Source: Bacteroidales bacterium (GTDB taxonomy: Bacteria; Bacteroidota; Bacteroidia; Bacteroidales; UBA4181). From it: a stretch of 37,445 bases of DNA. The stretch lies in NCBI GenBank assembly GCA_031273395.1, contig JAISRX010000307.1, forward strand, positions 1 through 37,445. Direction: 5' to 3'. The notes beneath the pieces are model-generated. The model was not told the origin of the DNA, ran no database searches, and saw nothing but the letters and a program-made list of their open reading frames with translations. Positions within the stretch are counted from its first letter, which is position 1, and every line of letters begins with the position of its first letter. The position numbers and the translations under genes were made by a program. This document shows, piece after piece, positions 35,557-35,745 of the stretch.

Positions 35557-35745
35557 TTTTGCGCCAGGGCGCGAATGATTTGCGCCAAGGCGCGAACAGT
35601 TTACTCCAAGGCGCGAGCAGTTTACTCCAAGGCGCAAGTGGTTTGCGCCAAGGCGCAAACAGTTTACTCCAAGGCGCGAGCAGTTTGCACCGTGGCGCAA
35701 ATCATTTGCGATATGCCGCAAACAGTTTGCGATACTCCGCAAAAG
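35557..35745. repeat. Tandem array of 9 units of a 21-bp repeat (TTTGCGCCAAGGCGCAAACAG consensus)
   Basis: Units start at 35557, 35578, 35599, 35620, 35641, 35662, 35683, 35704 and 35725. The best units carry 8-bp inverted arms TTTGCGCC/GGCGCAAA, and the units decay toward the 3' end. The array ends 70 nt upstream of the ATG at 35816. Confidence 0.95.

Follow-up and report, generated by a model that had tools for sequence, protein, structure and literature searches.

A palindromic 21-bp tandem array in the susD-GH28 spacer of a Bacteroidales polysaccharide utilisation locus and its tentative interpretation as a private minisatellite

Background

BrickBuilt elements of Porphyromonas gingivalis are intergenic structures in which 23-nt repeats follow one another in tandem without spacers and form long stem-loops (Klein et al. 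2015, PMC4596501). They are present in 19 copies in ATCC 33277 and are bounded by inverted repeats of the IS5 (insertion sequence 5) type; they lie 49-591 nt from coding sequences, often just past a Rho-independent terminator and with the next coding sequence less than 100 to a few hundred nt away; terminators and/or polyadenylation sites flank 10 of the 19, and no BLASTn match is on record outside P. gingivalis except for later homologues in P. gulae (PMC4596501). The present analysis concerns an element of comparable anatomy, a tandem array of nine 21-bp units with a palindromic consensus (hereafter array 2), which occupies the spacer between a susD-like gene and a gene for a lipoprotein of glycoside hydrolase family 28 (GH28) in a polysaccharide utilisation locus (PUL) of a Bacteroidales bacterium. 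The array is located in the far right portion of a single 37,445-bp contig (JAISRX010000307.1, assembly GCA_031273395.1), the whole of which is referred to here as the window and which also carries an unrelated array of the same period (array 1).

Repetitive extragenic palindromic sequences (REPs) and bacterial interspersed mosaic elements (BIMEs) provide a further reference point, as they are transcribed into RNA hairpins by which mRNA upstream can be stabilised or the genes downstream attenuated (Di Nocera et al. 2013, PMC3733652). An earlier note, made from the letters of the window alone, had proposed that both arrays have the same architecture and reflect a shared mechanism, for example a set of related regulators with a separate palindrome for each, or a common repeat-generating process. 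The reading preferred here, which is held tentatively and with somewhat less than even confidence, is that array 2 is a palindromic minisatellite of the BrickBuilt or REP kind that was amplified in situ and is probably co-transcribed as a structured spacer of the operon. Judged from the sequence comparisons described below, it is most likely private to its locus, rapidly evolving and of unproven function; on this reading it would not be a sequence-specific regulator of the PUL.

Anatomy and growth of array 2

The tandem array of nine units described in the earlier note was recovered at 35558-35746 instead of 35557-35745, and its placement between susD and the GH28 lipoprotein gene was supported by Pfam matches and a signal peptide. 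Tandem Repeats Finder (TRF) reported 35558-35731 with a period of 21, 8.3 copies and 78% matches (score 150), together with a super-period of 63 bp (score 240, 83% matches); degenerate repeats carried on as far as 35747. In the 21-bp register the first unit (U1) starts at 35558 and the ninth (U9) at 35726, followed by a decayed tenth unit. A lag-identity scan of the whole window gave more than 60% identity only at lags of 21 and 42, and only at the two arrays.

The consensus unit TTTGCGCCAAGGCGCAAACAG reads as GTTTGCGCC-AA-GGCGCAAAC-A, a palindrome over nearly the whole unit, the arms of which pair at eight of eight positions (9-bp arms if the linker is counted). As the unit is nearly all palindrome, the array as a whole is self-complementary, and long imperfect inverted repeats are present in it. 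The pattern TTTGCG-N6-CGCAAA, with up to one mismatch allowed, occurs six times, always within array 2, against 0.39 occurrences expected by chance, and this count was reached in none of 100 shuffles. Inverted arms had been ascribed to every unit. They are present in the five to six of nine units that fold (-3.4 to -9.8 kcal/mol), with pairing at 8/8 positions in U5, 7/8 in U1, U2 and U7 and 6/8 in U8 and U9, but not in U3, U4 and U6 (TTTACTCC...GCG/CAAG), where 4-5 of the eight pairs are found and no fold is predicted (0 to -1.5 kcal/mol).

The unit types follow one another in the order A A B B' A B A' C C' (D). U5-U6 repeats the 42-bp block U2-U3 with one base different and the broken-palindrome type B (TTTACTCC...GCGAG) is present three times, and this repetition indicates that the array grew by repeated duplications, some of them multi-unit, after the dyad had been damaged in some of the units. 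Since the broken type itself occurs three times, amplification appears to have outrun any selection for the dyad. The gene-proximal edge of the array (U8-U10) is decaying. Such a history of duplications and edge decay is typical minisatellite behaviour, and the exact 21-bp phasing is an automatic outcome of tandem duplication and not itself evidence of selection.

The course of events under the minisatellite reading would be as follows. A palindrome of about 20 bp (GTTTGCGCC-AA-GGCGCAAAC) would have multiplied in place through strand slippage or unequal exchange, at times by several units at once, within an ancestrally tight and translationally close susD-GH28 junction. The array would fill the dispensable part of the spacer, from the hairpin that follows susD to the AT-rich start region of the GH28 gene.

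The spacer as an operon joint

The spacer between susD and the GH28 gene measures 341 nt. A homologous PUL was found on a contig from a metagenome of the Joint Genome Institute (JGI), designated L013, with a SusD 47% and a GH28 protein 53% identical to those of the window; its layout (294-4927) is susD, 8 nt, GH28, 9 nt and a second GH28 gene. Judging from this 8-nt junction, the entire spacer in the window represents a tight operon joint that was inflated in this lineage. The two GH28 genes of the homologous PUL, lying 9 nt apart, suggest that the PUL of the window may also continue with a second GH28 gene past the contig end.

A terminator scan of 35300-36000 returned no intrinsic terminator, the hairpins being followed by AAACAG. 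Neither a sigma-70-like promoter (+ strand) nor, on either strand, a Bacteroidetes -7 box (TAnnTTTG) is present in the spacer, and inspection by eye of the part past array 2 gave nothing convincing in the way of promoter elements of the extracytoplasmic function (ECF) or sigma-54 type. The hairpin reported earlier upstream of the array exists (-13.5 kcal/mol), at 35524-35548 and thus one base off the 35523-35547 given then; it begins 49 nt past the susD stop codon and, being without a U-run, is not a canonical terminator. As neither a terminator nor a promoter was found between susD and GH28 and the homologous junction is tight, co-transcription is most likely, and we infer that array 2 is most probably transcribed within a susC-susD-GH28 mRNA.

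The spacer RNA has a predicted fold of -125.4 kcal/mol (z = -5.0), in which the last ~17 nt before the ATG are unpaired. Array 2 alone folds at -91.3 kcal/mol (z = -5.2) as the + strand and at -97.9 kcal/mol (z = -7.1) as the - strand. Because both strands fold equally strongly, its symmetry is a property of the DNA and not of a strand-specific RNA, and selection on array 2 for a strand-specific RNA was rejected. No Rfam family matched in the window at the gathering score, and the E-value mode gave only sub-threshold miRNA-like (microRNA-like) hairpin matches.

If transcribed, the self-complementary array would yield a very stable multi-hairpin or long-hairpin RNA spacer. This would uncouple GH28 from susD, with the loss of any translational coupling, and could dampen read-through and attenuate GH28, or protect the 3' end of susCD as a decay barrier. 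Read-through damping or a decay-barrier role is known for the REP/BIME elements in the malEFG operon of Escherichia coli.

The array might instead be coding. An open reading frame (ORF) of 107 aa (35496-35819, + strand) with LRQGANS-type heptads starts 22 nt past the susD stop codon, stays open through the whole array, in which 21 bp would correspond to seven codons, and ends in an ATGA overlap of its stop with the GH28 start. However, four of the six frames are open across array 2, synonymous and non-synonymous variants number 5 and 14 in the frame of the ORF, against 5 and 12 in one frame of the minus strand, the product has no Pfam match (best E = 0.34) and no plausible signal peptide, and the ORF runs through the hairpin and has no counterpart in the L013 PUL. 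Lacking both a frame-specific synonymous excess and a domain match, it was rejected as spurious, and a coding array is extremely improbable.

Two short sequence resemblances involve the region after the array. The sequence CCCTGTCC followed by a T-rich run is found both at 35777-35797, after array 2, and at 28553-28575, upstream of the ECF sigma factor gene (local alignment p ~0.04); since the 8-mer also occurs three times within susC on the opposite strand, this sharing may be due to chance. The 14-mer TTTCAA(T/A)TTTCAAA has two exact occurrences in the window, one directly before the GH28 ATG (35801-35814) and the other at the contig end (37428-37441), 128 nt past the GH28 stop codon. The next PUL gene probably starts near the latter copy, and the 14-mer may be a start-region motif common to the enzyme genes of the PUL.

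A second array and the parallels between the two

Arrays 1 and 2 are the only tandem arrays on the 37-kb contig. TRF bore out the claim that both have a 21-bp period, and the copy number, given earlier as about nine in both, is indeed similar (8.5 units in array 1, nine in array 2). Array 1 lies outside any PUL, on the other strand from array 2; it has GACGTC at the centre of its palindrome. The distances to the downstream start codon, 66 nt for array 1 and 70 nt for array 2, stand as reported, but the gene next to array 1 is not the lipoprotein gene it was taken for. Its 220-aa product has no signal peptide and no match in Pfam (even at E = 10), PHROG or NCBIfam, and the lipoprotein (601 aa) is encoded by the second gene of that operon.

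On the upstream side array 1 adjoins a terminator-like hairpin. The only consensus -7 box (TACTTTTG, 11854-11861, minus strand) is located upstream of both this hairpin and the array, so that array 1 may form part of the accessory operon's leader (~470 nt) and not lie upstream of its promoter. A homopolymer of 15 G residues (11731-11745) is also present upstream of the hairpin and the array. The gene-proximal flanks of the two arrays share the AT-rich 15-mer ATTTTTA(A/T)(T/A)TTTCAA, a weak similarity (p ~0.04), and the upstream flanks show no similarity (p ~0.4-0.5).

Part of these parallels may have a neutral origin. If arrays can spread only between an upstream hairpin and a start region, that is, in the dispensable part of a spacer, the upstream hairpins would follow from it, and so would the similarity of the two distances (66 and 70 nt). 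The agreement at about nine copies may in part be due to the assembler, as both arrays are 180-190 bp long, near the resolving limit of short-read assembly. That the copy number is an assembly artefact, with the true arrays longer or heterogeneous, is nevertheless very unlikely. The array lengths are nearly equal and just over typical short-read k-mer and read lengths, the window is one contig of an apparently uncultured organism whose closest relatives are metagenome-assembled genomes (MAGs), and the contigs of the relatives have MEGAHIT-style k141 names; against this, the units of array 2 are so divergent (78% matches) that long k-mers are unique, array 1 is anchored by ordered variants, and there is no doubt that both arrays exist.

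Of the shared mechanism proposed earlier, the part that survives is a common repeat-generating or repeat-tolerating process behind both arrays, which is plausible because the parallels are mostly real and the arrays are the only two on the contig. That Bacteroidales do generate such arrays is known from BrickBuilt in P. gingivalis (PMC4596501).

Distribution in relatives and sequence collections

Array 2 was found to be private to its contig in the collections searched. A pattern of two consecutive units gave a single match among the genomes of GTDB (185,579 species, one genome each), which was a non-tandem chance match, and a single match among the JGI metagenomes, in an unrelated coding PT-rich repeat. 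Plasmids and phages contained no match to the array 2 unit, and viral contigs gave none for either array. With up to five mismatches allowed, no copy lay elsewhere in the window, nor in 136 kb of sequence around relA from seven relatives (RelA 74-86% identical); the unit of array 1 was likewise absent from both, and no array of at least four copies with a period of at least 8 was detected in those 136 kb.

Exact-protein look-ups of GH28 and SusD gave no match. The nearest GH28 homologue is 60% identical and is not in a susD context on its metagenome contig (L012), and the GH28 protein of the window has no other member in its cluster.

[quoted passage not shown] In this case a single insertion would have brought the hairpin leader, the bricks and the AT-rich tail into the susD-GH28 junction, and array 1 would represent a second family. 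The entire spacer, and not the array alone, is extra with respect to the 8-nt junction of L013; the layout of hairpin, bricks and AT-rich tail is common to both arrays, with a weak similarity of the tails; and BrickBuilt itself combines a leader and a tail with bricks of 23 nt and shares its genome with a second, unrelated MITE built on a 41-nt repeat (PMC4596501). However, neither array has IS5-type terminal inverted repeats nearby, the window having 10 sites for the IS5-type end pattern GAGACYNTTGCA (up to two mismatches) where 15.4 would be expected, none of them beside either array. The upstream flanks are dissimilar, the array 2 unit has no GTAG/CGTC tag, no further copy was found in the 37 kb of the contig, the 136 kb of the relatives or the collections searched, and Pfam scans of the larger ORFs gave no transposase-family match. 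Membership in a dispersed family is considered unlikely.

Some other repeats were noted in the relatives. A few repeats of 2-3 copies with a period of 21 were rejected as a sign of a preference for 21 bp, because the TRF score threshold starts admitting two-copy repeats at that period. They include intergenic 2.2-copy repeats on two contigs (L004, 20465-20511, with the palindrome TTGTTAACAA; L006, 7580-7625), which are too short for interpretation. A 7-bp repeat, ATAATTG, is present in 9.9 copies in the closest relative, GCA_031275285.1, where it lies upstream of relA in a divergent spacer (L002, 1600-1668), and in 2.7 copies upstream of the closest GH28 homologue on an unrelated metagenome contig (L012, 536-554); it is absent from the window.

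Hints of constraint and the question of a cognate protein

Several points weigh against a neutral, privately amplified and co-transcribed minisatellite. That two unrelated arrays of one period, similar also in copy number and placement, should have arisen on one 37-kb contig through independent and purely neutral events is unlikely. By a rough hand count the outer arms have about 0.5 substitutions per column, whereas the centre has 1.4 and the 3-bp linker 2-3.7; in U8 and U9, moreover, perfect TTTGCG/CGCAAA arms enclose a diverged centre. Together these hint at a constraint on the arms, the events counted being few and non-independent. The equal folding of the two strands gives no pointer to selection on a sense RNA. 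No sequencing runs containing the spacer or relA were found.

One alternative is a helically phased docking array, in which the TTTGCG-N6-CGCAAA dyads are putative sites for a dimeric DNA-binding protein. Lying two helical turns apart on one face of the DNA, the sites could be bound cooperatively, and the downstream gene would thereby be repressed, activated or insulated; array 1 would be the counterpart for a different protein. The 21-bp period of both arrays, the low variability of the outer arms (in U8 and U9 even around a diverged centre), the position of both arrays, which follow a hairpin and end about 68 nt short of a start codon, and the 15-mer shared by the gene-proximal flanks are consistent with such sites. 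The period, however, is a trivial result of tandem duplication, and the dyad was lost in three of the nine units, which were re-amplified all the same. Outside array 2 the palindrome was found nowhere on the contig, including its other intergenic regions and those upstream of the sigma factor gene and susC. No candidate regulator is encoded beside the array, the neighbours being the genes for the ECF sigma factor, the anti-sigma factor, SusC, SusD and GH28; the sigma and anti-sigma factors are the only regulators of the PUL. The 8-nt junction of the L013 PUL leaves no room for such a site.

A docking role is accordingly judged unlikely. The same findings, together with the position of array 1 outside a PUL and next to a gene that does not encode a lipoprotein, leave the proposed family of regulators, one for each palindrome, without support. 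An operator set for a PUL transcription factor, for example of the LacI type, is likewise not indicated, the palindrome being confined to array 2 and no cognate regulator being present.

The docking idea may be extended to a general and undescribed class of cis-elements in uncultured Bacteroidales, in which locus-specific palindromes about 21 bp (two helical turns) apart follow a hairpin on their upstream side and end ~70 nt short of the start codon of genes for surface proteins or glycan harvesting, each array docks a cognate DNA- or RNA-binding protein, arrays 1 and 2 serve two such proteins, and the copy number acts as a heritable rheostat. This reading is judged quite improbable.

Genomic context

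The closest RelA, 86% identical, comes from a Bacteroidales MAG, and since the closest relatives are MAGs the source bacterium looks uncultured. The contig is chromosomal, as it carries dnaG, a release-factor gene, lepA, pyrI, relA, metG, a sigma-54 activator gene and lptE. The PUL at its right end is compact, with all genes on the + strand. Comparison of the GH28 protein with NCBIfam gave galacturonidase-like matches below the cut-off. The features of the two array regions are listed in Table 1.

Table 1. Positions of the arrays and of associated features in the window
Feature	Position	Strand	Evidence or remarks
ECF sigma factor gene of the PUL	28602..29216	+	Pfam Sigma70_r2, Sigma70_r4
FecR-type anti-sigma factor gene	29262..30266	+	Pfam FecR, FecR_C
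susC-like TonB-dependent transporter gene	30404..33832	+	Pfam CarbopepD_reg_2, Plug
susD-like gene	33846..35474	+	Pfam SusD_RagB; 47% identity over full length to L013 SusD
Hairpin GAGCAGC-N11-GCTGCTC	35524..35548	+	7-bp stem, 11-nt loop; -13.5 kcal/mol, z = -2.7
Array 2, nine 21-bp units, consensus TTTGCGCCAAGGCGCAAACAG	35558..35746	no strand	TRF, register, arm pairing, per-unit folds
Decayed tenth unit TGTACGGTCATACGCGAAATG	35747..35767	no strand	Register listing; 3/8 arm pairs
AT-rich pre-start region with TTTCAATTTTCAAA at 35801-35814	35768..35815	+	Sequence and predicted fold
GH28-family lipoprotein gene	35816..37300	+	Pfam Glyco_hydro_28; signal peptide MIRIFVFFFFTVFGAVFVYSGC, last residues VYSGC
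601-aa lipoprotein gene, second of the array 1 operon	8842..10647	-	Signal ...LMAIAFVAC
220-aa gene, 66 nt downstream of array 1	10720..11382	-	No signal peptide
Array 1, 8.5 units GGGAC(G/A)TCCCAATG(C/T/A)GACGGA	11449..11626	no strand	TRF, 94% matches; register
Terminator-like hairpin with T7	11628..11662	-	-12.2 kcal/mol; adjoins array 1 upstream on the gene strand

Implications

As a private minisatellite, array 2 would mark a hypervariable site within a PUL operon, at which the ratio of susCD to enzyme expression could shift between strains. It would also serve as a warning to annotators, as the spurious 107-aa ORF is likely to be called as a gene and the assembled copy number is possibly unreliable. 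Were a mechanism shared by the two arrays true, they would, together with BrickBuilt, suggest that Bacteroidales use or tolerate palindrome arrays of two helical turns as a common intergenic building block, the role of which is essentially unstudied outside P. gingivalis.

Comparison with known systems

Direct repeats of about two helical turns are familiar from plasmid iterons and centromeres, such as the seven 22-bp iterons of the R6K gamma origin and the twelve 43-bp repeats of F sopC, each with an inverted repeat. Array 2 resembles them in the length of its repeat, in the dyad that a unit may contain and in its copy number within the range of 7-12, but it is chromosomal, lies in a PUL, has no adjacent rep or par gene and shows no similarity to plasmids. 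With the minisatellites known as variable number tandem repeats (VNTRs), which are used in multiple-locus VNTR analysis (MLVA), it has in common the tandem amplification in place, the higher-order duplications, the decay at the edge and the lineage-specific presence; it differs in that its unit is palindromic and that a second array of the same period and placement is present on the same contig.

REPs and BIMEs are imperfect palindromes of 20-40 bp that lie outside genes or between cistrons and at times form clusters (Di Nocera et al. 2013, PMC3733652), and in these respects array 2 is similar to them. REPs are tagged by GTAG or CGTC, whereas neither GTAG/CTAC nor CGTC/GACG occurs in any unit of array 2; the units of array 2 are strictly head-to-tail, whereas the orientation in REP/BIME elements alternates; and array 2 is private to one contig in the collections searched, with no high-copy dispersal seen in the window. 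No gene for a REP-associated tyrosine transposase (RAYT) was found, the Pfam scans of the larger ORFs being without a transposase-family match.

BrickBuilt differs from the present arrays in several features. No leader or tail homology and no IS5-type terminal inverted repeats were found for arrays 1 and 2; its 19 copies are dispersed in P. gingivalis, whereas array 2 has no further copy within 37 kb; the unit of array 2 is itself an almost complete palindrome; and array 2 is placed within an operon junction, whereas BrickBuilt lies between independent transcription units. The likeness is one of anatomy. Both are found in Bacteroidales, both consist of strictly intergenic, spacer-less repeats of about two helical turns (23 nt in BrickBuilt and 21 bp in array 2), both form stem-loops, those of array 2 being predicted, BrickBuilt is species-restricted and array 2 private in the collections searched, and both are accompanied by a second, unrelated tandem-repeat element within the same genome.

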